This document shows, piece by piece, positions 1 through 17,595 of a stretch of 64,000 nucleotides of DNA. The DNA is from Spirochaetia bacterium. Lineage in GTDB: Bacteria > Spirochaetota > Spirochaetia > UBA9216. A model generated the notes under the pieces. The model was not told the origin of the DNA. It was given only the letters and a program-made list of their open reading frames with translations, and ran no database searches. The number at the start of each line of letters is the position of its first letter. Within the stretch, counting starts at the first letter, position 1. Position numbers and translations under genes: made by a program. The DNA lies in the NCBI GenBank assembly GCA_965140585.1, contig OZ223265.1, positions 32,001 through 96,000 of the forward strand, written 5' to 3'.

Positions 1-359
1 ATATCATAATTACCATTACCTTCAACTACAGCAAAACTCTTTAATGGTATCAATCGGTCTATAAAGTTTTTAAGACAAGCAGTCATATCCCATGTATAAA
101 CCGGTGTGGCATAACAAACAACATCTGACTGTTTATAAGCGTCAATCAGTTCCTTCATATCATCGTTATATACACACTGGCTATATTCTGTACGCCAACA
201 AGAAAAACATCCTTTGCAATGATTTATTTTTTTATCAATTAAAAAGTAGTTTGTTACTTCTGCACCTGAAGACTCAGCCCCCTCTTTAAATGCATTTACA
301 ATTATATTAGTATTGCTATTTTTTCCACGAGGACTTCCGTTAAAAATTGATATTTTCAT
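1..359 (-). CDS. Flavodoxin-family / NADPH-dependent FMN reductase (3' end outside window)
   Basis: Not in the ORF track. Manual minus-strand translation gives [17 protein letters not shown]...HCKGCFSCW...DDM...ATPVY...LKNFIDRL. The ATG overlaps the TetR stop (ATGA). Confidence 0.85.
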
Positions 360-940
360 ATTATTATTTCCTTAATCAAATCAATATGCTTCTCGATTTC
401 AGTTTCAGTCATTATTAAAATGGTTGATGAAGTTTTTAAGCTATCCCAAAAGTGAAGAATATGTTTTGCGACGACTTCAATATCAAAACTTTTGAACTCG
501 CCCCTACTCTGACCATAACTAAAAATCTTTGATAATATTTTGCATGAGTTTCTAACTCTTTCATTGAAATATTCTTGATAATCTGGTTCTATGAAAGCAA
601 ATTCATGAATTGCAAAATAAAAGCCTTTCGTTTTACTAAATACAGCCCTTTTTTCATGATTTAAATAATGTTGAAAAATATCGATTGCAGGAAAATTATT
701 TTGTATAGCCTCATTGACCGCAGTACTATTAATCTCAATATCTCTATTTAGAATTTGAATAAAGATATCTTTCGTCGAGGAGAAATATCTATAAAGTCCA
801 CCGCGACTTAGTTCTGTAGATTCACAAATATCTTGCATTGTTACTTTTGCATATCCTTTAATTGCGAAAAGTTCATATGCTTTCTCGAGAATATTTTCTT
901 TGGTATTTTTCCCCTTGTTCATAGCATTCCTTTCATACAC
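356..940 (-). CDS. TetR/AcrR family transcriptional regulator
   Basis: N-terminal [26 protein letters not shown]...[17 protein letters not shown]. Confidence 0.92.
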
Positions 941-945
941 AAAAA

Positions 946-1005
946 CGACACTCGTGTCTTTTTATGTATGAAACTCAATTTACGACACCAGTGTCGCTTT
1001 GTCAA
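946..1005 (-). promoter_or_regulatory. Sigma70 promoter with two palindromic putative TetR operators
   Basis: Minus strand TTGACA-17 nt-TAAATT. Palindrome CGACAC-CA-GTGTCG (983-996) lies in the spacer, and a second copy GACAC-TC-GTGTC lies at 947-958. Confidence 0.75.
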
Positions 1006-1100
1006 GCTTTTTCCGTTATTTATGTAAGATTTCCAATTATCTATGCGTTAAATTTAAAAGAGTATTAATTGTACCTGAATGTGATATATACCCGTCTGCC

Positions 1101-1240
1101 ATTTAACGACGTTTTGAGCTGCCTGACGGCGCGTGTCTTCACGCGCATTGGCGTGATTCTGGAGTGGAGCGCGATCAGCGCGAAACGTCTCTGCCAGAAT
1201 CATGACAATAGCCAGGACTGCTCCAAAACTTTTGTTATAA
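1101..1240 (-). repeat. attC-like integron cassette recombination site 1
   Basis: Minus strand begins TTATAAC (R'') and ends GTTAAAT (GTTRRRY, R'). Imperfect inverted repeat with an extra base in the R''-proximal arm. GC-rich island in AT-rich DNA, homologous to 2153-2280 and 3098-3245. Confidence 0.8.
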
Positions 1241-1375
1241 ATAGTTTTTCCTATATATCATACTACATTCACAATTTTACTTTAAATGAAACATACTATA
1301 TTCTTCATATAAACATACTTTTTTACTTCCACTGGGGTTATAAAAGTTATAGATTTACTGATAAGTTAAGAATTT

Positions 1376-2026
1376 CTATTTCCATCTATTTGTTAGGATA
1401 TGTTGATTAATATCTAATTCCTTCTGTGGAATTTCTTTGATCCTATCTTTTTTATATCCAATAGGAATAATCGATGCAATCTCGAATTCATTTGGAATTC
1501 CTAATATTTCTTTAACAGCTTCAGTATTTTTTGGAATAAATGTTACTCCAAATATATTTTTCTCAGCCAATGAAAGTAATAGGTTTTCTATTGCACACCA
1601 AATAGAAGCAAATCCATTAATATCATAAACTCGGATAGCATCTTTAATATCTGTTTTTGGCTTATATATTACTACAATTGATAAAGAGGCTTCCAAGATC
1701 ATTCGTTTCTGTTTTGGAATTGCATCAAAATACATCTTTTGGGCGATTGGATCATGGTCCTTAAACAATACTTTCATTTCTTCAGATATTGTTTCATACA
1801 TCTCTTCTGTTTGAGTAAGTTTAACCTTTTGCTCAAAATCATCAATTATTAAAAAATACCATTGTTTTAGATGATCGTAAGTTGGAGCAAGAAAGGCATC
1901 ATTGATTGCTTCTTTTATTACATTAATATCTAATTCTTGATCTGAAAAATCACGTATGGTTCGTCTTCTCATGATTACCTGTTTAAATTCCATAGTTGCG
2001 TCCTTATATACTATAAAGATTATCAA
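1376..2026 (-). CDS. Nitroreductase family protein (cassette gene)
   Basis: RRTIRDF...AFLAPT...Q.WYF and ENLLLSLAE...IIPIGY motifs. The likely start is the internal MEFKQV. Confidence 0.88.
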   Translation of the reverse strand: MIIFIVYKDATMEFKQVIMRRRTIRDFSDQELDINVIKEAINDAFLAPTYDHLKQWYFLIIDDFEQKVKLTQTEEMYETISEEMKVLFKDHDPIAQKMYFDAIPKQKRMILEASLSIVVIYKPKTDIKDAIRVYDINGFASIWCAIENLLLSLAEKNIFGVTFIPKNTEAVKEILGIPNEFEIASIIPIGYKKDRIKEIPQKELDINQHILTNRWK

Positions 2027-2152
2027 GATATTTTAGTGTTTTATTATATATTCTTTAAATCTTCGCTACCATTGGGATTCCTTATTGTAATCCCTATTTT
2101 AATGATTTCCTATTTTTTTATTGACACAATATTTTAATTTATCCGTTTCCTC

Positions 2153-2280
2153 ATTCAACTGTAAAAACCGACCGAGTCTTCGAGGCATGGCACAGTTCTG
2201 GAACGTAGTGCGAGCAGCGCGGAGTGTCTTTAGCCAGAACTGTGTCAAAGGTTTTGACTACTCCAAATCTCTTGTTATGT
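2153..2280 (-). repeat. attC-like site 2 (L'/R' arm degenerate)
   Basis: Minus-strand ACATAAC about 20 bp after the LysE stop. Shares the core CAGTTCTGG...CCAGAACTG. Candidate R' is GTTGAAT, but the adjacent arm pairs poorly. Confidence 0.65.
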
Positions 2281-2299
2281 GCTAATTTAATTATTTTTT

Positions 2300-2920
2300 T
2301 TAATCCTCAAAAGCTAATTTACCAGCAAATCCTATTAGCAATATTCCAAAACTTTGCTCGATTCTCTTTAAAATTATAGGAGATTTCATTAATACTTTTT
2401 TAAACAGATTAGCCAGTAATCCATAAATACAGAATATAATAAATGTTAATACCATAAATATTAAACCCAAACTGATCATTTTGATCTTGGAATTTTCATC
2501 ATTTATATCAATAAATTGTGGTAAAAATGAGAAGAAAAATAATGTTAATTTGGGATTTAGAAGATTAATAAGTACTGCTTTAATAATTATATTTATATAA
2601 TTTTCCTTATCTTTATCTTGAATTTCAATAAGTTTTTTATTTCTAAGTAATCCTAAACTTATGTATAAAAGATATATTATTCCTATAATTTTTATTATTT
2701 TAAATATAATAGCTCCAGTGTTCATAACTGCGGATATGCCAAGAATTGCAGCAGTAATATGTGGTATTATTCCTAAAGTACACCCAAAAGCAGCCAAGAT
2801 TGCACGTTGTTTATTACTAGATAAACTTGTTGTTATTGTATAAATAACACCGGTTCCAGGAATAATAATAACAACTAATGAAGTAACTAAAAAACTTATA
2901 TTGAACACTATTTCCTCCAA
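2300..2920 (-). CDS. LysE/RhtB family translocator (cassette gene)
   Basis: IIPGTGVIY and NLLNPK motifs, multiple hydrophobic segments. Confidence 0.9.
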   Translation of the reverse strand: MEEIVFNISFLVTSLVVIIIPGTGVIYTITTSLSSNKQRAILAAFGCTLGIIPHITAAILGISAVMNTGAIIFKIIKIIGIIYLLYISLGLLRNKKLIEIQDKDKENYINIIIKAVLINLLNPKLTLFFFSFLPQFIDINDENSKIKMISLGLIFMVLTFIIFCIYGLLANLFKKVLMKSPIILKRIEQSFGILLIGFAGKLAFED

Positions 2921-3097
2921 ATACTACGAAAGGTTATCTTAAAACTATATATCTTTCAGAAATCTCTATTAACCTTTTTATAGTTTATTTATACTATTCA
3001 AATTATTGATTCTATCCAATCCTTCTAATAATTTTTTATTTTTCGAATAATCTATTAGACATTTGTTAACCAAATTACTGAACGTTATCTTTTGTGC

Positions 3098-3245
3098 AAA
3101 TAACGACGAAATCAGTTGCGCCCTCGATCCTGAGCCGCAGGCGAAGGAATTGGCGCGGTTCTGGAGTGGAGGCATGATCAGTGCCGGAACGTCTCCGCCA
3201 GAACCGTGACAATAGATGGCGACAACTGCATTTCTCATGTTATCT
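3098..3245 (-). repeat. attC-like site 3
   Basis: Minus strand AGATAAC...GTTATTT with arms GAAATgCAGTTG / CAACTGATTTC. Core nearly identical to site 1. Confidence 0.8.
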
Positions 3246-3381
3246 TTCTGTATTTTATTTGATGAAGTACAGATATTTTCATTTCTCATAAGATTATCTC
3301 TACCTACTTATCTTTTACCTTTTGATATGGCAATTTCACTTATTACAGTCTGTGATCGTCATTATTTTTCCGATATATTTT

Positions 3382-3858
3382 TTACTTTTTTTGATCAATT
3401 TTCTGTGACATATATTTTTTCATGACATCTTTAGCCTTTTTCTCCGCCCATTCTTCCAGTCCTATTTTTTTTATTAAGCATAAATTATAGATCTTTGTAT
3501 TATGAGGTATAATATTTGCTTTATCAGCATAAGGCTGTAATTTATCGCATGGGAAATTATCACATTCACTACAGTTATGAATCTTTTTTTGCTCTACACA
3601 CAGATAAATAAAGCACTGTCCCTTTTTATTTAATAATAAGCATTTACCATTAGGAAAAACATTATTATGCTCGGAGAAATATCCGATTCCTTTTCGATCT
3701 CGACAACCATGGCAATCTGATTTTTCATAATCCAGACCTAATTTATTAGATATCTGCTTTTTTATCTGGTCATTAGATGTTGCCTTATATGCGCCACATT
3801 CAAAGCAGGGGATTCCACAAGGAGCTGTCATTTCTTTAAAATTCATTTGATCCTCCAT
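3382..3858 (-). CDS. DUF3795-like Cys-rich protein
   Basis: APCGIPCFECGAY...C.GCR...C.IY.C...CSECDNFPCDKL pattern. Confidence 0.75.
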   Translation of the reverse strand: MEDQMNFKEMTAPCGIPCFECGAYKATSNDQIKKQISNKLGLDYEKSDCHGCRDRKGIGYFSEHNNVFPNGKCLLLNKKGQCFIYLCVEQKKIHNCSECDNFPCDKLQPYADKANIIPHNTKIYNLCLIKKIGLEEWAEKKAKDVMKKYMSQKIDQKK

Positions 3859-3905
3859 AAACTATTCTTTCATTGATAGTTATTTGTTTTTCCCAATAGT
3901 ACATC

Positions 3906-4961
3906 TTGACAGGAGATTTAAAAATTGTCATATTTGACAAAATTATGGCTAATTACGTCACTTTAAACAAAAAAAGAAAACGTATTATAATCTTGGCACT
4001 ACCAGGAACTCCTCTCATGTCTATCTCTTCTGCTATTGATGTATTCCAAAATGCTCCTGAAATTTTTAACAAAATCATGAATAACGAAAATCCAACCCCT
4101 TTTGACGTAGACTTAGTTTCACCATCAGGAGAATATATTCAGTGTATGGGAGGTTTTAGGCTTGAAGTAAATACTTCGATGAATGAAATCAAAAAAGCTG
4201 ATTTAGTCATAGTTACTTCATTATATTCGGAAGATGAAACAAAATTGTTTTTGCCAGAAATCCGTAAATGGTTACTTAAAATGCACCTTAGTGGTTCAAT
4301 GCTAGCCAGTTTCTGTACAGGTACATTTGTTCTAGCATCAACAGGATTATTAAACGGAAAGACTGCAACAACTCATTGGGCATCAGCAAGAAAATTATCA
4401 CAAAGGTACCCCCAAATTCATGTAAAGCCTCATAAAATGATTTGTGATGAAGGAACTATTTTTACATCAGGAGGAAGTCATGGAGCTCTTGATTTATGCC
4501 TCTATTTAGTTGAGAAGCTTTATGGAAAAGCTCTTGCTTTGAATTATGCTAAAATTTTAGTTCACGATATCTCTTTTACAGAACAATCAGCTTATGCTAT
4601 TTTCAAAGGCTTACGAGATCATAGAGATACGAAAATCTGGGAAATACAGGACTATATAGAATCTCATTATTCAGAACATTTAGGAATTTCTTATCTGGCT
4701 AATAAGGCTGCTATGTCACGCAGAACATTCGAACGTCGTTTTAAAGCTGCCACAGGAGAATCTCCAGGGGACTACATACAACAGCTGAGGATTGAAGCTG
4801 CTAAACGTATATTAGAAATGGAGTTCGATACATTTGAACAAATTACATTACGTGTGGGGTATGAAGATGCAACAACATTTAGTAAATTATTCTCTAAACG
4901 TGTTGGAGTAACCCCAACTTCTTATCGTAATAAATTCCATTCTGGACAAACTATTCCTTGA
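3906..4961 (+). CDS. GlxA-type regulator (DJ-1/PfpI + AraC HTH)
   Basis: SFCTGTFVLASTGLLNGKTATTHW, and C-terminal MSRRTFERRFK...VGYED...F.KRVGVTP.SYR. Confidence 0.92.
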   Translation: MTGDLKIVIFDKIMANYVTLNKKRKRIIILALPGTPLMSISSAIDVFQNAPEIFNKIMNNENPTPFDVDLVSPSGEYIQCMGGFRLEVNTSMNEIKKADLVIVTSLYSEDETKLFLPEIRKWLLKMHLSGSMLASFCTGTFVLASTGLLNGKTATTHWASARKLSQRYPQIHVKPHKMICDEGTIFTSGGSHGALDLCLYLVEKLYGKALALNYAKILVHDISFTEQSAYAIFKGLRDHRDTKIWEIQDYIESHYSEHLGISYLANKAAMSRRTFERRFKAATGESPGDYIQQLRIEAAKRILEMEFDTFEQITLRVGYEDATTFSKLFSKRVGVTPTSYRNKFHSGQTIP

Positions 4962-5367
4962 TATATTTTTTGCAATGCAATTTCGTTTTACATTTTTGTA
5001 AAGATAACATATTATATTTAATACTTTTCCATATAACTTGAAGTACACACAAGTTTTGAATATTCCATCTAACATACATAATTCACAATGTGGCTCACTT
5101 CTTAATAGACAGAAAATCATTTTCAGAAATTATTTCAATAAATATGTCGTCTCAAGCCCTTCTTTTTCTCAGTTATTATCTGTTTATTACTTTCATCCTT
5201 GTCTATAAGCTTCGAAATATTCTGCCGACTAAATATTAAAATTGCGCCTCTCTTTGTTGCGTAATTGTTCACATTATAACTTACCTCAACTGCAATCTGC
5301 GACGTTTATTCTATGGTAATATTATAGCCAGACTTTCTCCATATAATTAACAATCTACATTACAATC

Positions 5368-5422
5368 TCTCTTAACTACTATTAAATACCAGAATATCGG
5401 GTATTTAATAGTAGTTAAGAGA
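5368..5422. repeat. Perfect 23-bp inverted repeat with 9-nt spacer
   Basis: TCTCTTAACTACTATTAAATACC (5368-5390) / GGTATTTAATAGTAGTTAAGAGA (5400-5422). Confidence 0.95.
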
Positions 5423-5722
5423 CTCTGGATTATTATAGTTATCAAACTAACTTTTTCTTTTCCATTGACGAATATAACTATTCTATCCTGGCATATTCTT
5501 GAATAATCAGAATTTGCAGTCTATACATCAAGCGCAAAGAATCTCGTTCTTAAATACATCTGTATAGAAATGATATTAATAATAACGCCTGATAGACGGA
5601 AATAAAAGTATTTTTAAATGGTATAAATAAAGTGTTTAAATAATGCAATTTCTATCTGGATAAATGACACAAATTGAAGAGAAAATGATAGGATTGGAAA
5701 CTGATAGAGTTTCTTCCAAGAG

Positions 5723-6082
5723 TTAAGCGAGGTTTTCTCTCTCTTGCTTCTCTTCAATCTCTTTTTGAAGTCTCCCCTTACATCCTGCAATTATATCTCG
5801 AATTGAAGTCAATCCTGTTTCATCTATTATTGCAAGATCTTCGATAATGTCAGCATATCTCGGTGGTGGTGTCCATTTTGATTGTTTTTCTCCAGTAAGA
5901 AGGTATTCGATAGTCACACCTAAAGCGGAAGCAATCTTTCCAGCCTGATCGACATTAGGCATAGTATTCCTCTGAATCCAACGGCTAAATGTATCTTGTC
6001 GAACCGGAATTTTCGATGCAACCCAATCTTGAGTTGTATTTTGTCTTTTAATCTCTTCTTTTACTCGTTTCCAGAAGTCCAT
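5723..6082 (-). CDS. XRE-family HTH phage repressor (CI-like)
   Basis: TQDWVASKIPVRQDTFSRW...P.VDQAGKIASALGVTIEYLLTG; divergent from the phage early operon. Confidence 0.85.
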   Translation of the reverse strand: MDFWKRVKEEIKRQNTTQDWVASKIPVRQDTFSRWIQRNTMPNVDQAGKIASALGVTIEYLLTGEKQSKWTPPPRYADIIEDLAIIDETGLTSIRDIIAGCKGRLQKEIEEKQERENLA

Positions 6083-6101
6083 ATTGGTAATATCGGTATA
6101 A

Positions 6102-6183
6102 AATTAGGCAAAAGTGCATAAAAAGTTATTGACTATTTTGCATTTTTGCCTAATTATTAGATTATAAATTCGGCAAAAATGCC
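6102..6183. promoter_or_regulatory. Putative lysis/lysogeny operator region with three related 17-mers
   Basis: AATTAGGCAAAAGTGCA (6102), inverted TGCATTTTTGCCTAATT (6139) and AATTCGGCAAAAATGCC (6167), with TTGACT at 6129. Confidence 0.7.
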
Positions 6184-6361
6184 TAACGGCAACATTAGAT
6201 ATCCATTAGCGGTATATGTATCACTCTCAGAAAAAGCCATCATAGACTCATTCTTTCATTCTCGTCCAAGGCTTAAGAAAGGAGAATCGGTTAAGAAATG
6301 GATTCTTGAAGCAATTGAGTGTGAAGATAACAATAATTCTCAAGAATCCGCTCATTCATAA
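6179..6361 (+). CDS. Small DNA-binding protein in the Cro position (RHH-like)
   Basis: 60 aa, divergent from the repressor, with a beta-alpha-alpha-like pattern (LAVYVSLSEKAIID...VKKWILEAI). Confidence 0.5.
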   Translation: MPNGNIRYPLAVYVSLSEKAIIDSFFHSRPRLKKGESVKKWILEAIECEDNNNSQESAHS

Positions 6362-6661
6362 ATCGGTTATAAAAGAAATTCAACCCCTCAATGGGTATCA
6401 GTTGCGTTGCTCTGATTGTTGGATTTCTTATCAAAACTTTGCCACAGGAGTAATGGTTTTCTAATCTTAATAACATGCAAACATTATTTACGGTCGAAAA
6501 GCGGCGACTACTCCGTTTTACAAATTATTTCGAATTAATTTTTTGTATGAGTTATTGCAGATGAACAGCTGAGATGCATGTTTTTACTACTTCATTGAGC
6601 ATCATCCAGCATCAAGGTTGTTCATCTGTTTCTTGATTGATTCAGGAGGTAATGGGTATCT

Positions 6662-6844
6662 ATGAGCGAAAAGATTAAACGAAAAAGAATAAATCTATTG
6701 CTTCCAGAAGATCTTCTAAAACGAGCTGAATCCGTAGGAGCTTTGAAACACAAAAGCCTCACAGCTTATATCACAGACTTGATCTATACAGATGTAACAA
6801 ACAAAGAGAAGGCAAATATAAACTCCTTCTTTGGGAATGATTAG
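6662..6844 (+). CDS. Ribbon-helix-helix (CopG/Arc-like) protein
   Basis: KRINLLLPEDLLKRAE...SLTAYITDLI; AGGAGG upstream. Confidence 0.75.
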   Translation: MSEKIKRKRINLLLPEDLLKRAESVGALKHKSLTAYITDLIYTDVTNKEKANINSFFGND

Positions 6845-6845
6845 C

Positions 6846-6904
6846 GGTATCAAGGTGGAATACATGAGTATTTCAAAGCTCAGGTTCGATTCCTGAAAAT
6901 ACCA
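6846..6904 (+). ncRNA. Degenerate tRNA-like element (T-arm and partial acceptor, no D-arm)
   Basis: TCAGG-TTCGATT-CCTGA T-arm, GGTAT/ATACC-A ends, internal hairpin GAATAC-ATGA-GTATTT. Confidence 0.45.
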
Positions 6905-7215
6905 TACGGCATACGGTGAGCCTTTGTTGATGAGTGAGAAACACCATACCAGTTGAGAAATAAATACCATCAACTTAGGCAAGACCAAGCCTGCAGACCT
7001 TGAGTAAGTCTGCAGCCCTCCGGGACCGGGTGAAAGCCCCGGATTTTTATAAGGCGGGTAAAATAATGAATAACAAAGAACTTGAATCAGCATAAGAAAT
7101 TGATAGTGCATGAGGCTAAAGGCTGTTTCAGGTCATTCTGAACATGTGCTTAAGGTGGGATGGTTTTTCGATGATAAATGAGCCGCACCTTTTTTAAAAA
7201 CACAGAATCATCGGT

Positions 7216-7311
7216 TGGAACGTGATGCAGTTGGAAAGCATGGGTCGGGACAGGAAAGTCCCGGAGAGTTTTACTCTCCCCTTATCGTCCGTTCAAATCG
7301 GACCGTTCCAG
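7216..7311 (+). ncRNA. tRNA-scaffold RNA with the anticodon arm replaced by a two-hairpin junction
   Basis: Acceptor TGGAACG/CGTTCCA, D-arm ATGC-AGTTGGAAA-GCAT, T-arm GTCCG-TTCAAAT-CGGAC. No canonical anticodon loop. Confidence 0.75.
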
Positions 7312-7350
7312 TACTTTTAGAATTTTGAAACATCTTTTTAGGAGGTATGT

Positions 7351-7539
7351 ATGCCGGAAGTAGAGATCACCTTAAGTGAAAAAGAAGCAGCTGAAATTCT
7401 TGATAGTTTAACTTTCATCGAATCAAAGAGTAGGCAAATGTCGCTTGCAACAAGTCAGATGGATTCAAGACTTCTGCAGATTTCCCATCATGCACAGAGG
7501 ATATCTGAGAAGCTGAAAGATAAAGGCGTTGTTGTATGA
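7351..7539 (+). CDS. Phage hypothetical protein
   Basis: AGGAGG RBS; ATGA overlap with the next gene. Confidence 0.7.
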   Translation: MPEVEITLSEKEAAEILDSLTFIESKSRQMSLATSQMDSRLLQISHHAQRISEKLKDKGVVV

Positions 7540-8528
7540 ACACTGAGCATGCCCTGGCTGTGATTAATGAGCAGAAGATCATCGAATACTTGGATATTAC
7601 CGGTACCGGATCAAACCTTACGGATAACGAAAAGCGGCAGTTTATCGAGGTAGCAAAGGGATGTAACCTAAACCCTTTCAAAAGAGAAATCTACTGCCTG
7701 GCATACGATACACAGGATGGCCGGAAGTTATCAATCATCACAGGGTATGAGGTGTATCTTAAACGGGCGGAGCGGACTGGGATGCTTGATGGATGGAAAG
7801 TTGAGGTTAAAGGTTCGAGGAAAGATAATACTTTCCGGGCTATTCTAACAATCTTTCGGAAGGACTGGGATAAACCATTCATCCATGAGGCATACTTTGT
7901 TGAGTATAACCAAAGAAAGGCGCTATGGAAAACCAAGCCCATCACCATGATTAAAAAGGTAGCCATAGCCCAGGGTTTTAGGATGTGCTTCCCCGACATC
8001 TTTTCAGGCATGCCCTACACCGCCGAGGAATCAGGAGAAGACTTCCGGAACATCACACCAGAGGATTCTTCAGATGATGTTATGCAGCCGAAACCTGAGT
8101 CCTTTGAACCTGTCACAGATCCAGATAGCCCAGATTACATACCAGAAGATGATTACATCTTAAAACCAGAAGATTTCCAAATCGAAGATGCAGACAATAC
8201 CCCGGATTACGAGACTCCTGAAGATAAACACCAAACAATCGGTATACCAGCTGATGAAGCCAAACAGAGTCATATTGATATGGATTTCATTCATGAGGTT
8301 GAAGCCAGGGCAGATGAGATTCGGCAGTTTGCAGAAGCTCACAGAGAGTATATCAGGCCTGATGCATATGCGGCTCTTAATGATCTTGATATAAGAGCTT
8401 TGAAACAAGATGAACCTCATTTATACCTGGACTCAGTTTCAGAGAGGTTGAGAAATACCGTGAAACTTCGAATTGAACAAAAGAAGAGTAAACAAACCGG
8501 AACCCTTGAGAATCCGGAAATCTTTTAA
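7536..8528 (+). CDS. bet: Phage recombination protein Bet (Red-beta/RecT-like SSAP)
   Basis: LNPFKREIY...IITGYEVYLKRAER...W.TKPITMIKKVAIAQGFRMCFP...GMPYTAEE. Confidence 0.85.
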   Translation: MNTEHALAVINEQKIIEYLDITGTGSNLTDNEKRQFIEVAKGCNLNPFKREIYCLAYDTQDGRKLSIITGYEVYLKRAERTGMLDGWKVEVKGSRKDNTFRAILTIFRKDWDKPFIHEAYFVEYNQRKALWKTKPITMIKKVAIAQGFRMCFPDIFSGMPYTAEESGEDFRNITPEDSSDDVMQPKPESFEPVTDPDSPDYIPEDDYILKPEDFQIEDADNTPDYETPEDKHQTIGIPADEAKQSHIDMDFIHEVEARADEIRQFAEAHREYIRPDAYAALNDLDIRALKQDEPHLYLDSVSERLRNTVKLRIEQKKSKQTGTLENPEIF

Positions 8529-8549
8529 ACACATAGGAGATAGAATATT

Positions 8550-8795
8550 TTGAAAATAGGAGCCTGTTGGATAAAGAAATCCAGTACCAATAATGAAACC
8601 TACCTATCCTGCGCACTTGAGATAGTCCCAGTTGAGCTAATGCTTGGAAGCAAAAACTTTGCACTTTTCAAGAACAAGGAAAAGAAAAAAGCTGAACAGC
8701 CGGATTATATAATCTCATTCAATCCACAAAAGCCTTCAAACACCCAGTCTAATAACAACAGCTATGGCGATTTTGAGGATGATATTCCCTTCTAA
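8550..8795 (+). CDS. Small DUF736-like putative ssDNA-binding protein with SSB-type acidic tail
   Basis: KIGACW.K...YLS...ALFKNKEKK...QPDY; ends DFEDDIPF. Confidence 0.65.
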   Translation: MKIGACWIKKSSTNNETYLSCALEIVPVELMLGSKNFALFKNKEKKKAEQPDYIISFNPQKPSNTQSNNNSYGDFEDDIPF

Positions 8796-8806
8796 GGTCG
8801 GAAACA

Positions 8807-10126
8807 ATGAAAAGTCATCTGATGCAGGTAACAGACAGCACAGCCTTTCTCAAAAACGTTCCGGATAACACTTTCACCGCCTGTGTCACTGATGGTCCTT
8901 ATGGAATATCGTTCATGAACTCAGCCTGGGATACTTTCAATCCGGAAGTCCTTAGAGAAAAGATTGAGACAAATAAAAGCACCTTCCAGGGGAAAGAAGT
9001 CAGAAGACCTGCATGTGAGGCTGGACGATACAACCGGGATTTGGAATCAAACAGGGCTTTCCAGGCATGGTGTGAATCATGGGCCTCTGAAGTTTTACGC
9101 ACAGTAAAACCCGGCGGGATTCTTCTTTCATTTTGCGGACCGCGGACATATCACCGGATGGTTGCAGGTATTGAGGATGCAGGATGGATTGTCAAAGATA
9201 CCATGATGTGGATTTATGGTTCTGGGTTTCCAAAGTCTCACAATATCGGAAACTCTGTTGATAAGCAGCTTGGATGTTCAAACCGCGGTCATGCAATAAG
9301 CAGTGGAAACAAGTACCACCCTTCAACTGGTATTGCCAGAGCCTCCGGGGATAAACTTTCAAAGTACCAGGGAAGAACACAAGAAGGTTCTATTTGGGAA
9401 GGCTACGGAACAGCGCTTAAACCTGCTTATGAACCCATAGTTCTTGCTATGAAACCTCTTGATGGAACCTATGCAAACAATGCACTTACCTGGGGAGTTT
9501 CTGGGATAAACATCGATGAAACCAGAATTGAGAATAACGACCGGGAACTCTACGGGATTTCCGGGGATGAAGGGAAAACAAAGGTTTCCTGTTACAAGGA
9601 CCGTGAGCGGGTCTCATATGTTCCTAATGAGCTTGGCCGCTGGCCATCAAACATCCTCCTTGAGCAATATTCCAGAGGTTACCTTGATGCTCAGGCTGAT
9701 GAGAATATAAGCCGGTTTTTCTATTGTTCAAAATCAAGCAAAGCAGAACGGGAAGCAGGCCTATCTGATTTCGAATCCTTCCAGGTAAATGACGGCCGGA
9801 AATCAGAGATTGATAATGCCTACCAGCGCGGAGAGACCAGAAGAAAGAATATCCACCCTACAGTGAAACCTCTATCAGTTATGAGGTACCTGGTGAAGCT
9901 TGTTAAGATGCCTAAAGACAACCACATCCTTGATTTATTCATGGGTTCAGGGACTACCGGCTGTGCATGCGCACTTGAAGGGATAGAAGAGTTTACCGGG
10001 CTTGATAAAACCCCTGATTACCTTCCAATTGCAGAGGCACGAATCAAACACTGGGAAAAGGTTTCAGTTCGGGGGAAAGATTTTGACGAGCTGCAGGGGG
10101 ATTTATTCAATGCTGTTTGCTCATAA
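8807..10126 (+). CDS. Orphan N6-A/N4-C DNA methyltransferase (beta class)
   Basis: Catalytic DGPY (DPPY-like) motif near the N-terminus; HPTVKP and LDLFMGSGTTG near the C-terminus. Confidence 0.88.
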   Translation: MKSHLMQVTDSTAFLKNVPDNTFTACVTDGPYGISFMNSAWDTFNPEVLREKIETNKSTFQGKEVRRPACEAGRYNRDLESNRAFQAWCESWASEVLRTVKPGGILLSFCGPRTYHRMVAGIEDAGWIVKDTMMWIYGSGFPKSHNIGNSVDKQLGCSNRGHAISSGNKYHPSTGIARASGDKLSKYQGRTQEGSIWEGYGTALKPAYEPIVLAMKPLDGTYANNALTWGVSGINIDETRIENNDRELYGISGDEGKTKVSCYKDRERVSYVPNELGRWPSNILLEQYSRGYLDAQADENISRFFYCSKSSKAEREAGLSDFESFQVNDGRKSEIDNAYQRGETRRKNIHPTVKPLSVMRYLVKLVKMPKDNHILDLFMGSGTTGCACALEGIEEFTGLDKTPDYLPIAEARIKHWEKVSVRGKDFDELQGDLFNAVCS

Positions 10127-10138
10127 GGTTGTAATCTG

Positions 10139-10606
10139 ATGGAAAAACTGAAACTAAAAGTCCTTCCTGCAAGCTCTAAAGACCCGCTTACAATCTCTTT
10201 CACCATCGAAAGAGAGGACCTGTATCTAACCAAGGCCTTTTATAAACAATACATCACTCCATGTCTTGATCATTATCTCACCATTGAAGTTAAGAAATGG
10301 TACCGGGAAAGAAGCCTCAATCAGAACAAGCTCTGGCACAAGATGCTCCGGGAACTTTCGGCCGGGCTTCAAACAGATATGGAGCTTATAAAGCAGGGAA
10401 TAAAGGAAGTGGCTGCAGATGAATACGGCTACCCTTCAGCGGTTAACCCGTTTAATAAAAACCGAACACCAAAGCCAAGCAGCCAGGCGACTGTTAAAGA
10501 AATGGGAATACTCATTGAAACAACCTTCATCGAGGGAGGCCAGTCTGGAGTTGATTTATCTGAATACGCGAATGATTACAGGAAGCTTAAGAATGACAGA
10601 GCGTGA
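10139..10606 (+). CDS. NinB/Orf-like phage recombination accessory protein
   Basis: RSLNQNKLWHKMLRELS and SSQATVKEM..LIE motifs. Confidence 0.55.
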   Translation: MEKLKLKVLPASSKDPLTISFTIEREDLYLTKAFYKQYITPCLDHYLTIEVKKWYRERSLNQNKLWHKMLRELSAGLQTDMELIKQGIKEVAADEYGYPSAVNPFNKNRTPKPSSQATVKEMGILIETTFIEGGQSGVDLSEYANDYRKLKNDRA

Positions 10607-10883
10607 ATCATTTAAGCTGCAGGAGCTTAAACAGAAGAAGTTTTTCATCCAGGGCGGTCAGTGCGCGGTCTGCGGGAAAATGCTTCTGGATGGTACTCCC
10701 CAGCTTGCTCACAGAATCCCTCAGTCAGAAATGTTTCTACAGAAATACGGGGAAGCGGTTATTCATCATGAGAAAAACCTGGTACTTGTGTGCAGTGGGA
10801 AGTGTAATGATTCAGTACTTATTCAGAATAACCCGGTGGAAATACAAAGGCTCATCGATGAGATAGAAGGAGAGATTTTATGA
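10593..10883 (+). CDS. Small HNH-fold zinc-binding protein
   Basis: CAVCG...QLAHRIP...NLVLVCSGKCN. Start reassigned to ATG 10593 within ORF 10419..10883. Confidence 0.6.
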   Translation: MTERESFKLQELKQKKFFIQGGQCAVCGKMLLDGTPQLAHRIPQSEMFLQKYGEAVIHHEKNLVLVCSGKCNDSVLIQNNPVEIQRLIDEIEGEIL

Positions 10884-11704
10884 ATGGACAGATGAAAAAT
10901 ATCCCAATGGAACAGGTCCGGTTTATTGGAAACATTCGTGATGCAGATATCGAGATTGATGAGCTGGCTTCATCGATTAAGTACCAGGGATTATTACAGC
11001 CGGTTGTTGTGAGTCAAACCGGAGAGGGATACAACCTCATTGCCGGACACAGACGATTTAGAGCCTGTACCCTTCTTGGATGGACTGAGATCCCCGCGGT
11101 AATCAGAGACTTTGAGAATAACCGGGCTGTACAGCTTACAGAGAACATCCAGCGCAAGGAAATGACCAAACTTGAGGAAAGTACTGCAGTCTATAACCTT
11201 ATGAAAGATATAAAAGTCAATAAATCAAGGCTTGGGAAAATCCTGGGACGAAATCCAAACTGGATTGATAAGCGCTTAAGCTTCTACGAGGTTCGGGAGT
11301 TTCTTCTGGGCGCTGGAATCCTTCCGCTGAAGCTCATTGATACTATGAGTTTTGATATCGCAAAAATCGTGAGCAAGTATAACAGAAAATACTGGTTGCA
11401 GTTATGCTCAAACCTTCTTGGTAAACGCTGGCTCCCTGAACAGATCCGTGCTTACTGTGAGAGTGTTACAAATCCTAATTACAAACCCGCTCAGAACAAG
11501 AAGCCTGGGAATAAATCTGAGAAACGTACTCCGGAGCCCGGTTCTGATAACAAGATAATCCTTGATCTTCTAAACAGTGAAGAGGATGAGTTTTCAATAG
11601 TCCTTGATAAGAAAGATCTTGTAATAAAGCTTATGTTCCCAACTGATAAAGGCTTCAAGACCGTTAGTAACATCCTTCAGAAAGTCGGTGGGGAAATACT
11701 TTGA
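10880..11704 (+). CDS. ParB/Spo0J N-terminal domain protein
   Basis: ELASSIKYQGLLQPVVV...LIAGHRRFRA...ENIQRKEM. Confidence 0.85.
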   Translation: MNGQMKNIPMEQVRFIGNIRDADIEIDELASSIKYQGLLQPVVVSQTGEGYNLIAGHRRFRACTLLGWTEIPAVIRDFENNRAVQLTENIQRKEMTKLEESTAVYNLMKDIKVNKSRLGKILGRNPNWIDKRLSFYEVREFLLGAGILPLKLIDTMSFDIAKIVSKYNRKYWLQLCSNLLGKRWLPEQIRAYCESVTNPNYKPAQNKKPGNKSEKRTPEPGSDNKIILDLLNSEEDEFSIVLDKKDLVIKLMFPTDKGFKTVSNILQKVGGEIL

Positions 11705-11734
11705 AAAGCATCTATTAAACAAAAGGTTAATACT

Positions 11735-12787
11735 ATGGCAGATAAGAAATACTACTGGTTGAAACTTCAAAAGAACTTTTTCAAGCGGCATGATGTAAAA
11801 ATAATCAAGGCAATGGATAACGGATTACAGCATGTTCATAACTACCTGCAGTTGATGCTTGAAAGCATTGATCATGAAGGCACCCTTCGATTCAGTGATG
11901 AAATACCCTATACCGTTTCAATGCTTGCCGCGGTCATCGATGAGGATAAGGACACCTTAGAAAAGACTTTTGAAATTCTCAAGTCTTTCAGGCTGCTTGA
12001 AATCTGGGATGACGGGACCATCTTTCTTACAAAGATTCCGGAAATGCTTGGTTGCGAAAGTGAAGCTGCAGAAAGAGTCCGGAAGTACCGGGAGAAGAAA
12101 CAATCTGAATCTGATGATTCCTCAGAGGATGACCAGGGAGAAAGTTCTATGGATGAACCTGATAACTACCCAGAAAATCCATGTAACGAGGATGTAACAG
12201 ACCCCGCGTTACATTGTAACAACGCTGTAACATCATGTAACGCGCATGAAACGCCGTGTAACGGAGGTGAAACAAGCTGTAACGCTGATGTAACACAGAG
12301 TAAGAGTAAGAGTAAGAGAGAGATAAAGAGTAAGAGTATTAATATGGCGCCAGAGGCTGAGCCTCCCGCGCTTTTTGGTCCGGATGAGATTGAATCTCAG
12401 GAGGAGGCTCCCCCTTCCGGGGAAGAACCTCTGGGGAATATGCTTAGCTTTCCTGACCCTGATACTCTGCTTTATAACCGCGTGAAAGATCTCTTTGAAC
12501 AAAAGCAGCCTCAAGGTAAGTTCACCAACTACGGCAAGGAAGGCGCTGCAATCAAGCAGCTCATCGCGAAATCAAGAGCCAGATCCCCAGATGATGATTT
12601 TCTAATCGGCATGATTCAGATGTTTGATAGACTTCGGGAACAGGAGGGCTTCTACAGGAAACAACCGTTTTTACCTTCGGCGCTCAATTCCTCCGGAATT
12701 TGGGATCGGGTACTCAATGCGGCACAGTTAATCTGGGTAGAGGGACAAACTCTCAAGGACATGGAGGAAGAGGAGATACTATTTTGA
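11735..12787 (+). CDS. Phage replication initiator (replisome organizer N-terminal domain)
   Basis: KKYYWLKLQKNFF...GTLRFSDEIPYT..MLA...SEAAERVRKYRE. Confidence 0.85.
   Translation: MADKKYYWLKLQKNFFKRHDVKIIKAMDNGLQHVHNYLQLMLESIDHEGTLRFSDEIPYTVSMLAAVIDEDKDTLEKTFEILKSFRLLEIWDDGTIFLTKIPEMLGCESEAAERVRKYREKKQSESDDSSEDDQGESSMDEPDNYPENPCNEDVTDPALHCNNAVTSCNAHETPCNGGETSCNADVTQSKSKSKREIKSKSINMAPEAEPPALFGPDEIESQEEAPPSGEEPLGNMLSFPDPDTLLYNRVKDLFEQKQPQGKFTNYGKEGAAIKQLIAKSRARSPDDDFLIGMIQMFDRLREQEGFYRKQPFLPSALNSSGIWDRVLNAAQLIWVEGQTLKDMEEEEILF
12182..12337 (+). repeat. Putative phage replication origin (phased TGTAAC iterons plus purine-rich tract)
   Basis: TGT/AAAC hexamers at 12182, 12193, 12215, 12226, 12236, 12247, 12257, 12268, 12278 and 12289, followed by (AGAGTA)n. 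Confidence 0.7.
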
Positions 12788-13209
12788 CTGTTGAAAAGTT
12801 TATATCAAAGATTCAGGGATCATACGGGACCTACTCTGCAGGTCAGCTGACTGTTGTAAAACAGTACCTTGAAAAACAGAAACCGGCACTTATTGAGTAT
12901 TTATATGCTGAAGTCTTAAAAACTGTCTCCTGGCAATACAAGACCCCACCAGGGCCCAAAGAGTTTGAACAGGCTATGAAGAATGTGAAAGTCCGGCCGG
13001 AACTCAGGATTGAGTTACAGCCTGCCCCTGTACTGAAACTTGATGAACCAGAAGTCCCTGCAGAGGAGGCAAAGAAGTTCTTTGATGAGCTTAAGAGAGT
13101 CACCAGTAAAAAGAAGCCTGAAGGGAGGGTCATTGACTATGCAGAGCGAAAAGCTCAGCTGCAAAGACAAGCTGTTACCCTGCAGGATAAAGCGGCATCG
13201 ATGCGATGA
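12784..13209 (+). CDS. Phage hypothetical protein following the initiator
   Basis: TTG overlapping the initiator stop, with GAGGAG upstream. Confidence 0.55.
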   Translation: MTVEKFISKIQGSYGTYSAGQLTVVKQYLEKQKPALIEYLYAEVLKTVSWQYKTPPGPKEFEQAMKNVKVRPELRIELQPAPVLKLDEPEVPAEEAKKFFDELKRVTSKKKPEGRVIDYAERKAQLQRQAVTLQDKAASMR

Positions 13210-13225
13210 GCTTGGAGATTGTATC

Positions 13226-13483
13226 ATGAAATTCTTAAAAGAGTTCTTAATCAATCTGGGTGCCCTACTGGCTGCACTGGTTCTGCTTTTCTTTCCGGAA
13301 ATCATTGCAGCAATTGCGTGTAGCTTTTTCGGTGTTTCGGAGAATGCTGGTTGGTGGATTGTTCTTATCGGGTTGATTCTTCAGATTGCGGGTGGCATCA
13401 CCCTTGTACATTTCCTGTTTCCTGAAGGAATGGTTATCTCTGAATCGAAAACTGTCATAACTGAAATCAAGGGAGGTAGATAA
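13226..13483 (+). CDS. Small phage membrane protein
   Basis: Two hydrophobic segments; start at internal ATG 13226. Confidence 0.55.
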   Translation: MKFLKEFLINLGALLAALVLLFFPEIIAAIACSFFGVSENAGWWIVLIGLILQIAGGITLVHFLFPEGMVISESKTVITEIKGGR

Positions 13484-13487
13484 CATC

Positions 13488-13628
13488 ATGATTCACTGGG
13501 CCTGGCTTTTACTGATATTCCCTGCATCTTTTTTGAGTTTCATTATGGGGGTGATTATCGCTCACGGTATGCAAATTGAAGTGATTCTCGCTCCTGCAGG
13601 AAAAGAAACCGTGGAGGATAGAACATGA
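13488..13628 (+). CDS. 46-aa hydrophobic phage protein
   Basis: GGAGG RBS, MIHWAWLLLIFPASFLSFIMGVIIAHG..., ATGA overlap with the next gene. Below the ORF-track cutoff. Confidence 0.5.
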   Translation: MIHWAWLLLIFPASFLSFIMGVIIAHGMQIEVILAPAGKETVEDRT

Positions 13629-14011
13629 AAAAGGTGAAACAGTCTGTATGGACATTTCGAAAATCCTATTGCCGGAAACTGCTTAACCAGATATTCCGGA
13701 AAGACAATATCTGTCCAGACTGTGCTGGGCACGGTATCTCACTTGCATTCTGTGATTACGTTGATGAATCGAAAAATGGGCTTGAGATCCTTAAGTGTAG
13801 AAGATGCGCGGGCAAAGGTCATATCTCTTTCGTCATGAAAGACTGGATTGAAAAAGGTCTGCAGCTTCGAACGCTCATGCTTGAGAACCACTGGTCATTT
13901 AAGGATGTGTCGAAGCTTACCGGTTTCGGGGTAGTTGCTGTATCTGATGCGAAACATGGATATTCAGACCCCACTCCTGTACTTGAAGCACTCCCCGGAG
14001 GTTTCAAATGA
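13625..14011 (+). CDS. Phage protein with CxxCxGxG zinc-finger motifs and a C-terminal HTH-like segment
   Basis: CPDCAGHG, CRRCAGKG, WSFKDVSKLTG. Confidence 0.55.
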   Translation: MKKVKQSVWTFRKSYCRKLLNQIFRKDNICPDCAGHGISLAFCDYVDESKNGLEILKCRRCAGKGHISFVMKDWIEKGLQLRTLMLENHWSFKDVSKLTGFGVVAVSDAKHGYSDPTPVLEALPGGFK

Positions 14012-14039
14012 AACCACTTTCACAAGGATTGTTACAGAT

Positions 14040-14435: not shown

Positions 14436-14436
14436 G

Positions 14437-14895: not shown

Positions 14896-15196
14896 TCAGC
14901 ATAGTTTGCACAGGAGAGCCTTTGGGTAAAAGAAACTCTCCTGCACAAGGGGTTATGTGTCTGCAATTAACACTTGTTTAGTACTTTATATCGGGGACAT
15001 GAATCAAACAACAGTAAAGGAGTCAATTTTACAATTTTAACATATTAAACGGCCCGGGAAGCTATGACGGCCAACATGCATTCCCGAACCGTATAAAGAA
15101 TAAGGAATTTCCCTAATGATAGTTTAGAGAATTCATTTAGAGATATCAAATTTATGATGAAATAAATCAAACTCCTGCGGTAGGCAGGGAAAAAAA

Positions 15197-15298: not shown

Positions 15299-15347
15299 TT
15301 GTTCATTAAGAGGATGCTGAAATAAAACATAGGATTATTACAACAGT

Positions 15348-16139: not shown

Positions 16140-16210
16140 AAATCGGATTAATAAGTAAATGTAATCATAGGTCTGGTTCCATTAGATCACGTCTTATAAA
16201 AGGAGATTGA

Positions 16211-17585: not shown

Positions 17586-17595
17586 TATAAAATCC

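Follow-up and report, generated by a model that had tools for sequence, protein, structure and literature searches.

The left end of the 64-kb window (the whole stretch of DNA analysed here) very probably holds a segment of a chromosomal integron array of Spirochaetia type, extending over positions 1-3858 and possibly to about 5000, with no integron integrase within reach. CALINs are described as clusters of two or more attC sites without a nearby intI, the distance being 4 kb in IntegronFinder and 10 kb in a control run (PMC4889954), and the segment is either such a CALIN or a truncated chromosomal integron lying beside a prophage remnant. The features discussed below are the following:

3-359, minus strand: FMN-reductase/flavodoxin-like gene (Pfam FMN_red, 1.1e-18), cut by the window edge
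356-940, minus strand: TetR-family regulator (Pfam TetR_N, 1.7e-13, and TetR_C_17)
1101-1240, plus strand: predicted attC site E1, intact, with ends ATTTAAC...GTTATAA
1376-2026, minus strand: nitroreductase-family cassette gene (Pfam Nitroreductase, 2.9e-13)
2153-2280, plus strand: predicted attC site E2, degenerate, with ends ATTCAAC...GTTATGT
2300-2920, minus strand: LysE-type exporter cassette gene (Pfam LysE, 3e-36)
3098-3245, plus strand: predicted attC site E3, intact, with ends AAATAAC...GTTATCT
3382-3858, minus strand: gene for a Cys-rich DUF3795 protein (Pfam DUF3795, 3.6e-14)
3906-4961, plus strand: AraC/DJ-1 (FtrA/GlxA-like) regulator (Pfam HTH_18, HTH_AraC and DJ-1_PfpI), divergent from the DUF3795 gene
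5723-16477, unstranded: prophage remnant, early/replication module only (Pfam and PHROGs), which adjoins the array and is not part of it

Three related palindromes and the genes between them

The first-pass annotation of this DNA had described three GC-rich imperfect palindromes separating AT-rich, co-oriented genes, and E1, E2 and E3 lie where it placed them, with every feature that it listed. Their G+C content is 0.47-0.53 versus 0.24-0.31 between the elements, where all genes are on the minus strand, and the shared cores with compensatory changes were found as GATTCTGG/CCAGAATC, CAGTTCTGG/CCAGAACTG and CGGTTCTGG/CCAGAACCG. The three elements belong to a single repeat family and have the same orientation. 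The core pattern TTCTGGA-N25-40-GCCAGAA occurs three times in 64 kb against 0.02 expected, a number reached in none of 100 shuffles. When the plus strand was folded as single-stranded DNA, E1 and E3 gave z scores of -5.1 and -5.5, equalled in each case by 0 of 200 shuffles; the fold of E2 was no better than that of shuffled DNA (z = -1.4, equalled by 19 of 200). A covariance model of the family aligned over its full length with E1 (156.6 bits, E 1.7e-38) and E3 (137.9 bits, E 1.5e-33), and gave 102.5 bits for E2, where numerous non-canonical pairs fell within the helices of the R and L boxes. Elsewhere in the window, over the other 60 kb, no family copy was detected, the next best covariance score being 13.5 bits (E ~1).

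Read along the minus strand, the order is the DUF3795 gene, E3, the LysE gene, the decayed E2, the nitroreductase gene, E1, the TetR gene and the FMN-reductase gene, which runs off the left edge. The last two ORFs overlap by 4 nt with no attC between them, and form a two-gene cassette, TetR first and FMN-reductase distal, from the predicted E1 crossover at 1106. The nitroreductase gene probably starts at 1993, and the LysE gene matched the NCBIfam homoserine/threonine/leucine efflux families below their cut-offs. E3 is the attC of the DUF3795 gene, and this gene makes up the last cassette that can be recognised on the right. Neither an attC nor an attI was identified upstream of it, and no family copy occurs farther right in the window. 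The adjoining AraC/DJ-1 regulator, which scored 211.8 bits against NCBIfam FtrA, under the cut-off of 425, may be a member of the last cassette or flanking DNA; the G+C content of 3246-5722 (0.315) is similar to that of the cassettes. A promoter and terminator scan of 900-6300 returned 31 promoter-like sites where 28.5 were expected.

Architecture of the attC family

Integron attC sites are described as imperfect palindromes of the form RYYYAAC...GTTRRRY with R and L boxes, in which structure is conserved over sequence and extrahelical bases on the bottom strand stand opposite the AAC, 6 bp apart (PMC5027507); attC types of spirochaetes have also been described (PMC8352920). A profile from the E1-E3 family recovered 93 copies in the DNA covered by the analysis, in which the loci fetched by a core pattern do not include the genome of the window itself, and the alignment of all 93 was used for structure. 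In this alignment, pairing held in 91.6% of cells compared with 34.5-45.0% when partners were slid, changes on both sides were seen in 26 of the 42 pairs, and 13 of 17 pairs in the L-box/inner helix were compensatory. The covariation score, calculated on the same 93 sequences from which the structure was derived and inflated by related subfamilies in the alignment, was 0.345 versus 0.148 for shuffled data and was reached in 0 of 500 shuffles. RNAalifold alone gave compensatory changes in 18 of 26 pairs.

The GTT end is present in 93/93 copies and the AAC end in 87-90 of them. On the right arm of the plus strand, an unpaired C (92/93) and an unpaired A (87/93) are separated by exactly 6 base pairs, and the AAC is carried by the opposite, left arm. 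The attC architecture proposed in the first-pass annotation is thus borne out by AAC/GTT-bounded palindromes, compensatory pairing in both boxes (R and L), two extrahelical bases spaced by 6 bp, and co-oriented arrays with ORFs on the top strand; both spacers of the window likewise have their longest ORF on the predicted top strand (2/2). Judged by this architecture, E1 and E3 are genuine integron attC sites. In E1, R' is ATTTAAC and R'' is GTTATAA, with the GTT at 1234-1236; by analogy with studied sites, the plus strand would be the bottom (recombining) strand and cleavage would fall between A1106 and C1107. In E3, R' is AAATAAC and R'' is GTTATCT (GTT at 3239-3241), which would place cleavage between A3103 and C3104. 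The family departs in some details from the general description: the R'' sequences of E1 and E3 match GTTRRRY only in part, agreement with R/Y at the outer four positions being partial, and the spacers between R and L boxes consist of a 3-nt GAC and a 4-nt stretch, in most copies TCTT, against 5-6 nt in studied sites (PMC5027507); no rule makes such shorter spacers incompatible with function.

Rfam searches of the whole window at gathering thresholds, and of 1-7000 at E <= 1, gave no relevant match and are uninformative on attC. The sole Rfam match was a spurious miRNA-precursor call on a hairpin at 5362-5433. The hairpin at 5368-5422 was considered as a short attC and rejected, being a single copy that scored 13.5 bits (E ~1) in one orientation and 10.7 bits in the opposite one, and having neither the unpaired spacer nor the extrahelical base of an attC.

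Related arrays in other spirochaete genomes

The 143 core-pattern loci fetched among the matches listed comprised 53 with true copies and 90 chance matches. All but one of the true-copy loci (52 of 53) were labelled as spirochaete, the other being a 4.4-kb contig labelled Mycoplasmatota, and the nearest copies among the matches listed came from MAGs labelled Spirochaetia and Candidatus Thalassospirochaeta. Copies on any single contig were all co-oriented, and the 69 spacers between copies ranged from 426 to 3963 bp, with the median at 1230 bp. The longest ORF reached at least 60 aa in 58 spacers, and in 49 of these it ran antisense to the plus orientation of the repeat.

In a related genome, OY776510.1, at least 45 copies are spread across 4,417,881-4,524,342 in an array of about 106 kb, and at least 24 loci were recorded, all those listed falling inside 4.408-4.534 Mb. 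E1 is 97.8% identical to a copy of this array (L110:245-383) and E3 is 90.8% identical to copies in it. The array ends 958 bp from the gene for a bona fide integron integrase, which is divergent from the cassette genes. The 339-aa protein scored 392.5 bits against the TIGR02249 'integron integrase' model, above the cut-off of 265, and the match covers positions 4-315 of the 315 in the model. The association with IntI comes from this one related genome, the only one whose array was fetched with its head end in full; at a 4-copy cluster (L060), no IntI was found within the 3.3 kb examined on the head side. A recombinase gene by the solo attC of L036 was examined as a candidate IntI and set aside, being frameshifted and Xer-like, with 128.9 bits against TIGR02249 versus the cut-off of 265.

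Comparison of the window proteins with the fetched loci gave a close match for the nitroreductase cassette only, which shares 82% amino acid (83% DNA) identity with a gene at the end of the array of CAXXYH010000003.1. This cassette is common to arrays of two genomes. The CAXXYH010000003.1 array is itself interrupted by at least 23 kb carrying a phage-type integrase, TOTE and type I R-M genes.

Decay of E2

In E2, the right arm (L''/R'', with the GTT at 2274-2276), the inner stem and the central hairpin are preserved. Its left arm (R'/L') has been replaced, or else lost in part, and is non-homologous to that of the family, the nhmmer match beginning at model position 32, so that the R and L boxes are unable to pair and the apparent AAC end may be fortuitous. 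E2 is therefore probably inactive as an attC. Since the R'/L' arm is missing, the LysE and nitroreductase genes, should they move at all, most likely do so together in a single fused cassette, and the decay of E2 has most likely fused two cassettes into one.

Array polarity and the missing integrase

As the first-pass annotation had stated, the window contains no intI: none of 67 ORF translations had a Phage_integrase domain, and tblastn with the related IntI was blank at E <= 10. Within the window no TIGR02249-type integrase stands beside the array, and neither intI nor attC was found in the 60.7 kb to the right of E3. The earlier advice to look for intI on the left finds no support, since the integrase-proximal end is put to the right of E3 by the polarity of the ORFs (49 of 58 spacers), the placement of the extrahelical bases on one arm, the junctions of the cassettes, and the site at which IntI lies in the related complete integron. 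With this polarity, intI is expected to the right of E3, where phage genes stand, and the array to the left is the distal continuation. A remnant of attI or intI right of E3 was sought by comparing 3200-6200 with the region between attC and intI in OY776510.1, which gave only chance matches of at most 31 nt, and no reading frame resembling IntI was found.

Because the window has no intI, 'CALIN or array segment', the wording of the first-pass annotation, is the right operational label. The label applies on the right, where intI is absent over 60.7 kb; leftward from E1 only 1.1 kb is visible, and an intI at another place in the genome, or an unusual layout, is possible. About half of CALINs have been reported in replicons that encode an IntI, and rearrangements are described as splitting integrons (Cury et al. 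2016, PMC4889954).

The phage-like block next to the array

The block at 5723-16477 encodes a CI-type repressor, RecT, a DNA methylase, NinB, a ParB-like protein, a replisome organiser, a Dam methylase and a Mor-like late activator. From E3 to the repressor gene (5723-6082) the distance is 2478 bp, in agreement with the 2.5 kb given earlier. The G+C content of the block is 0.424, compared with 0.31-0.32 on either side, and the late activator (16211-16477) is followed by host-type signalling genes. No gene for a phage integrase, terminase, portal, capsid, tail or lysis protein was detected in the 64-kb window, nor was any tRNA found by the tRNA scan of the window. No direct repeat longer than 13 nt marks phage ends between 3246-6100 and 16100-30000. 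In a phage collection no relative of the block was found: matches covered only 1-2% of 5700-13600 and lay in the recT/bet genes of Nitratiruptor and Helicobacter phages.

The first-pass annotation had placed the array in the int-cI slot of a prophage, a placement at odds with a block of early genes only that lacks integrase and structural genes and has no flanking att repeat. Given this gene content, the array is an integrase-less segment abutting a prophage remnant. CALINs and pieces of chromosomal integrons have already been described in phage genomes (Qi et al. 2023, PMC9892861); in the window, where the left end of any such element would lie outside, we found none of the att-like repeats, integrase, structural or lysis genes of a phage-borne integron fragment.

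Alternative explanations

Many temperate phages carry accessory genes between int and cI, and the array could on this model be prophage cargo, placed between the repressor and a phage integrase lying left of the window, and loaded with cassettes by a host IntI. A CI-type repressor gene is indeed oriented towards the array at 2.5 kb from its end, the region left of the window is unseen, and phages with CALINs or integron fragments are on record (PMC9892861). Against this stand the absence of any phage integrase, virion or lysis gene in 64 kb, the host-type genes after the late activator, and the lack of a direct repeat of 14 nt or more joining the two sides of the block. Moreover, the same attC family forms chromosomal arrays of 60-106 kb with their own IntI in related genomes, the G+C content of the array (0.24-0.31) differs from that of the phage block (0.42), and the phage faces the integrase-proximal end of the array, not a random point. 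We consider prophage cargo very unlikely, and loading of a phage through a host IntI finds no support in a remnant that has neither integrase nor structural genes. It is hardly credible that E1-E3 are dispersed palindromes of the REP/MITE kind or intergenic terminator hairpins with no integron role. They are GC-rich intergenic hairpins, E2 is a copy decayed in place, and OY759746.1 has three single copies (L036, L050 and L125) 60-150 kb apart, as such elements might; but strict co-orientation with about one gene per spacer, the confinement of copies, in the two many-copy genomes among the matches listed, to one or two loci each, and an array ending beside a TIGR02249 IntI all argue otherwise. 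The scattering that the first-pass annotation named as evidence against attC sites is not seen, the three window copies being clustered, with zero copies in the other 60 kb, and the OY776510.1 loci (at least 24) sharing one interval of the chromosome. Neither terminators nor REPs need AAC/GTT ends and asymmetric extrahelical bases.

A variant of the preferred reading, the chromosomal integron segment, is a complete and active integron whose intI and attI have been relocated on the chromosome, by a rearrangement or through insertion of the phage, so that the cassettes are shuffled in trans. Both E1 and E3 are intact, with identity of up to 97.8% to copies in IntI-bearing arrays, a stretch of at least 23 kb with a phage-type integrase divides the array of CAXXYH010000003.1, and both the sharing of replicons by IntI and about half of CALINs and the splitting of integrons by rearrangement are documented (PMC4889954). 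The 60.7 kb to the right, without intI or further attC, weigh on the other side, and we see this variant as possible at somewhat less than an even chance.

Proposed mechanism

If the segment follows the integron paradigm, the plus strand of each attC would fold into an imperfect hairpin, and the two extrahelical bases would guide an IntI, supplied from elsewhere in the genome or from outside, in its binding to the R and L boxes. By the same analogy, this IntI would cut at the A-C junction of the 5'-AAC-3' on the left arm, at 1106|1107 in E1 and 3103|3104 in E3. Recombination of E3 with E1 would then free a circle of 1997 nt with the LysE and nitroreductase genes, which could re-insert at an attI. 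With no adjacent intI or attI/Pc, the segment would otherwise be a static store of genes for redox/detoxification, efflux and regulation.

The phage-like block stands where the integron platform is expected and may have displaced or deleted it. In the related complete integron, IntI is found at exactly this position, and an island with an integrase likewise breaks up a second related array. That a temperate phage integrated at or beside attI/intI and its decay took the integrase, or that the cassette segment travels with a phage-derived element, nevertheless seems unlikely to us. If true, the phage-at-platform reading would provide a natural case of a prophage disabling a chromosomal integron.

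Relation to known integrons

Sedentary chromosomal integrons have been described in Treponema, including T. denticola and T. succinifaciens (Wu et al. 2013, PMC3607928), and share with the window array a spirochaete lineage, co-oriented cassettes and AAC/GTT attCs with R and L boxes (PMC3607928). The long attCs reported there, 132 bp in T. succinifaciens and 115 bp in T. brennaborense, are comparable with the 128-148 bp of E1-E3, a likeness drawn from their description, and degenerate attCs in which no AAC was identifiable are also mentioned for Treponema (PMC3607928). Unlike these integrons, the window has no intI, and its nearest copies listed are in Spirochaetia MAGs and Ca. Thalassospirochaeta. 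A further parallel is the intI-less remnant of T. phagedenis, where attCs and cassettes have outlasted the integrase in a static array; the loss of that integrase was deduced from the synteny of relatives (PMC3607928), whereas no relative in synteny was available for comparison with the window array. The origins proposed for CALINs (Cury et al. 2016, PMC4889954), loss of intI and rearrangement, are consistent with an array headed by a phage remnant. Phage-genome CALINs resemble the present case in that clusters of attCs are physically linked to phage genes, but those of Qi et al. (2023, PMC9892861) lie inside defined phage genomes, while the remnant in the window lacks ends, integrase and virion genes and the array, unlike theirs, looks chromosomal.

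The VCR sites of Vibrio cholerae (VCR2, 133 bp) are likewise long and homogeneous and have a variable region that branches (Nivina et al. 2016, PMC5027507), and very large chromosomal arrays are found both in the V. cholerae superintegron and in the related OY776510.1 (about 106 kb). The VCRs belong to another sequence family and another phylum, and have the extrahelical bases G, T and T in VCR2 (PMC5027507) as against two, A and C, here. Although A and C differ from the usual G and T, such sites are known: engineered A-N6-C sites with 6-nt spacing were reported to be excised by IntI1, IntI2*179E and SonIntIA (Larouche & Roy 2011, PMC3053210). The natural spacing in attC-dfrA1 is given as 7-8 nt (PMC3053210), in contrast to the canonical 6 bp kept across the 93 sites of the present family.

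The window array leaves existing knowledge of integrons unchanged and adds one case to the integron cassette arrays known from spirochaetes; the related loci show that a single attC family, with identities of up to 98% across genomes, underlies very large arrays of uncultured Spirochaetia. For annotation, the intergenic palindromes are best treated as predicted recombination sites instead of terminators or regulatory RNAs, and the small AT-rich genes as predicted mobile cassettes of an array with no integrase at hand.

Three palindromes of an attC family

As the first-pass annotation had recognised, three GC-rich imperfect palindromes (E1, E2 and E3) separate co-oriented AT-rich genes. The palindromes have a G+C of 0.47-0.53, against 0.24-0.31 in the intervening DNA, and all genes between and flanking them are on the minus strand.

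Features of the array and its right flank
3-359, minus strand: FMN-reductase-like gene, truncated at the window boundary
356-940, minus strand: TetR regulator
1101-1240: E1, G+C 0.51
1376-2026, minus strand: nitroreductase-family gene
2153-2280: E2, G+C 0.47
2300-2920, minus strand: LysE-type exporter gene
3098-3245: E3, G+C 0.53
3382-3858, minus strand: DUF3795 protein gene (gene of E3)
3906-4961: AraC/DJ-1 regulator, divergent
5723-16477: phage block, with genes for a CI-type repressor, RecT, N6/N4 methylase, NinB, ParB-like protein, replisome organiser, Dam methylase and Mor-like late activator

The elements share the core TTCTGGA...GCCAGAA, found three times in 64 kb against 0.02 expected occurrences, and the bases adjoining it show compensatory changes, in agreement with the initial description. 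Folding as single-stranded DNA is far better than in shuffled controls for E1 (z = -5.1) and E3 (z = -5.5), but not for E2 (z = -1.4).

A single scan of a species-representative genome collection with a 19-base core pattern returned at least 143 loci, and a profile built from the repeats separated true copies from chance pattern matches among the 143 listed: 53 contained true family copies and the remaining 90 were chance matches. Among the matches listed, 52 of the 53 true loci carry a spirochaete label (Spirochaetia, Spirochaetales or Candidatus Thalassospirochaeta), one lies on a contig labelled Mycoplasmatota, and the best full-length identities to the window elements are 97.8% (E1), 94.7% (E2) and 90.8% (E3). 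Outside 1080-3300, the window had no match to any of the 143 listed loci, none of which belongs to the genome of the window itself. The Mycoplasmatota-labelled locus (L072, 1349-3808; JAEIOE010000093.1) has three co-oriented copies on a 4.4-kb contig of a metagenome-assembled genome; either the contig was mis-binned or the cassette DNA is that of a non-spirochaete.

The spirochaete-labelled listed loci and the window together provided at least 93 copies, the three of L072 not being counted. All copies on each contig have a single orientation, with spacers of 426-3963 bp (n = 69, median 1230 bp). The left-end AAC is found in 87-90 of the 93 copies and the right-end GTT is invariant (93/93). In the alignment a 12-bp L-box helix runs on into an inner stem; there are also a small side hairpin and a long central one. 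This structure was written by hand from the alignment and then counted on the same 93 sequences; in a structure so drawn, standard pairs occupy 91.6% of cells, a share that drops to 34.5-45.0% once the partners are shifted by 1-3 columns. Both-sided changes affect 26 of the 42 pairs, and the covariation score, for copies that form related subfamilies, is 0.345 against 0.148 in shuffles, a value reached by none of 500. RNAalifold, run without the hand-written structure, found 18 of 26 pairs to be compensatory. Two bases of the right arm have no partner, a C (92/93) and an A (87/93), with exactly six base pairs between them.

According to Nivina et al. (2016, PMC5027507), the R' box of an attC site is 5'-RYYYAAC-3' on the bottom strand and is cut between A and C. 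Near L'', the arm facing AAC bears two or three extrahelical bases, with a 6-bp stem from the first to the last of them; the central spacer is unpaired and the terminal structure varies. [quoted passage not shown] In Larouche & Roy (2011, PMC3053210), attC-dfrA1 has A/C extrahelical bases, and engineered A-N6-C sites underwent excision by three integrases.

Association with an integron integrase

In OY776510.1, at least 45 copies occur between 4,417,881 and 4,524,342 (about 106 kb), and 958 bp beyond the last repeat lies a 339-aa ORF (11044-12063 of locus L068), on the strand opposite to the cassette genes. Its product has Phage_integrase and Phage_int_SAM_4 domains and matches NCBIfam TIGR02249 'integron integrase' with 392.5 bits (cut-off 265), in one stretch covering positions 4-315 of 315. 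The layout is canonical, with intI at the array head and divergent from the cassettes, and 4,417,881-4,525,300 (loci L017 to L068) is a complete integron. Its first spacer has a PIN-domain gene. With the attC features of the family, this association bears out the proposal that E1-E3 belong to an attC cassette array. The label 'CALIN (attC cluster without integron integrase) or array segment' is also right: attC sites are present and, as first stated, no intI was found in the window, where no tyrosine-recombinase domain turned up in 67 ORF translations and tblastn with the related IntI gave no match at E <= 10. Spirochaete integrons, CALINs and intI-less remnants are already described (PMC3607928, PMC4889954 and PMC8352920), as are phage-linked attC clusters (PMC9892861).

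A second large array, on CAXXYH010000003.1, comprises at least 32 copies (about 51.6-126.8 kb) and is broken by at least 23 kb at 60.5-83.5 kb (L026, L042). Within this interruption are a tyrosine integrase of phage type, scoring only 44 bits against TIGR02249, together with Fic, type I R-M genes and the primase-helicase of a TOTE conflict system. A lone copy in OY759746.1 (L036, 9961-12217) has as neighbours a gene for a MazF-like toxin and an Xer-like recombinase with a frameshift; at 128.9 bits against TIGR02249 (cut-off 265), this recombinase was rejected as an integron integrase. Three isolated copies of this kind are 60-150 kb apart in that genome.

Degeneration of E2

A covariance model built from the 93-copy alignment was run across the whole window with filters off. 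E1 (156.6 bits) and E3 (137.9 bits) were recovered at full length, and E2 scored 102.5 bits, its R and L helices having numerous non-canonical pairs. E2 retains the right arm along with the inner stem and the central hairpin; its left arm is unrelated to AACGAC-GATTTGAGTAGC, the left arm of the family. Lacking R'/L', E2 cannot form integrase-binding boxes, from which we infer that it is inactive and that the LysE and nitroreductase genes now make up a single fused cassette bounded by E3 and E1. A homologue of the nitroreductase cassette ends the CAXXYH010000003.1 array (83% DNA and 82% protein identity), where the attC upstream is likewise degenerate, by changes other than those of E2.

The next-best match was a hairpin at 5358-5433 (13.5 bits, E about 1). 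The 55-nt hairpin at 5368-5422, present as a single copy, is rejected as an attC by the family model. It is near-perfect (26-nt arms, 96% complementary, 3-nt loop), has TTAAC/GTTAA close to its ends and lies between the AraC and phage repressor genes, in 760 bp of AT-rich non-coding DNA that separates the AraC/DJ-1 regulator from the phage block.

Polarity of the array and the missing platform

Four independent lines agree that the plus strand of the window is the predicted bottom (recombining) strand and that the array head is on the right. The extrahelical bases lie opposite AAC on the plus strand; in 49 of the 58 spacers with an ORF of 60 aa or more, the minus strand holds the longest one; one recurrent cassette end (...TACACAAAAC) joins differing attC subtypes exactly at the left-side AAC; and the IntI of OY776510.1 is on the high-coordinate side, the right, once its repeats are drawn in the window's orientation. 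Four of the nine ORF exceptions are a recurring 385-aa ORF, found in four spacers of OY776510.1 and equal in length to a DDE transposase (Pfam) just past the distal end, left of the array. A weak additional point is that the plus-strand GC skew is negative over nearly the whole window, which would place the bottom strands on the leading-strand template, the arrangement of 25 of 30 sedentary integrons in Loot et al. (2017, PMC5371416).

The integrase gene had been expected on the left; this polarity would place it on the right, the phage side. There, beyond E3, nothing resembling attI was recognised by similarity to the head of the OY776510.1 array. In the phage block (G+C 0.42, against 0.31-0.32 on either side) no gene for an integrase, terminase, portal, capsid, tail or lysis protein was detected; its flanks share no direct repeat longer than 13 nt, and it has no relative in the phage collection. 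It is a dead prophage remnant without ends, and in relatives the attC family is chromosomal and integron-associated; the idea of an array inside the prophage, loaded by a host IntI, is not supported. The position of the integron platform (intI and attI) is nevertheless taken by this remnant. Given that position, and the integrase-bearing island that splits the second related array, it is a reasonable but unproven explanation that a phage inserted, decayed and so removed the platform.

Other features of the window

Downstream of the phage block are response regulator, NUDIX, GGDEF-EAL and histidine-kinase genes, followed by ordinary metabolic genes up to the window end. At 22071-23061, 6 kb past the end of the phage early block, an HNH endonuclease of a phage-typical family (PHROG 144, 3.2e-26) adjoins an unknown ORF and may be a further scrap of the same prophage. 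Two response-regulator and NUDIX gene pairs (16584-17657 and 27438-29252), with common short repeats 10,410 nt apart, enclose a low-GC block of signalling genes and look like the product of an old duplication. A second full-length LysE-type gene (28054-28650, plus strand), 25 kb from the LysE cassette gene and on the opposite strand, has 67% protein identity to it and overlaps the spurious 5' part of a long ORF (27438-28520). Probable pseudogenes occupy 43536-45875: a LysR gene reduced to its substrate-binding domain and an Oxidored_FMN (old yellow enzyme) gene split in two ORFs (44577-45002 and 45018-45875). An inverted repeat of 42 nt is found at 43480/44479.
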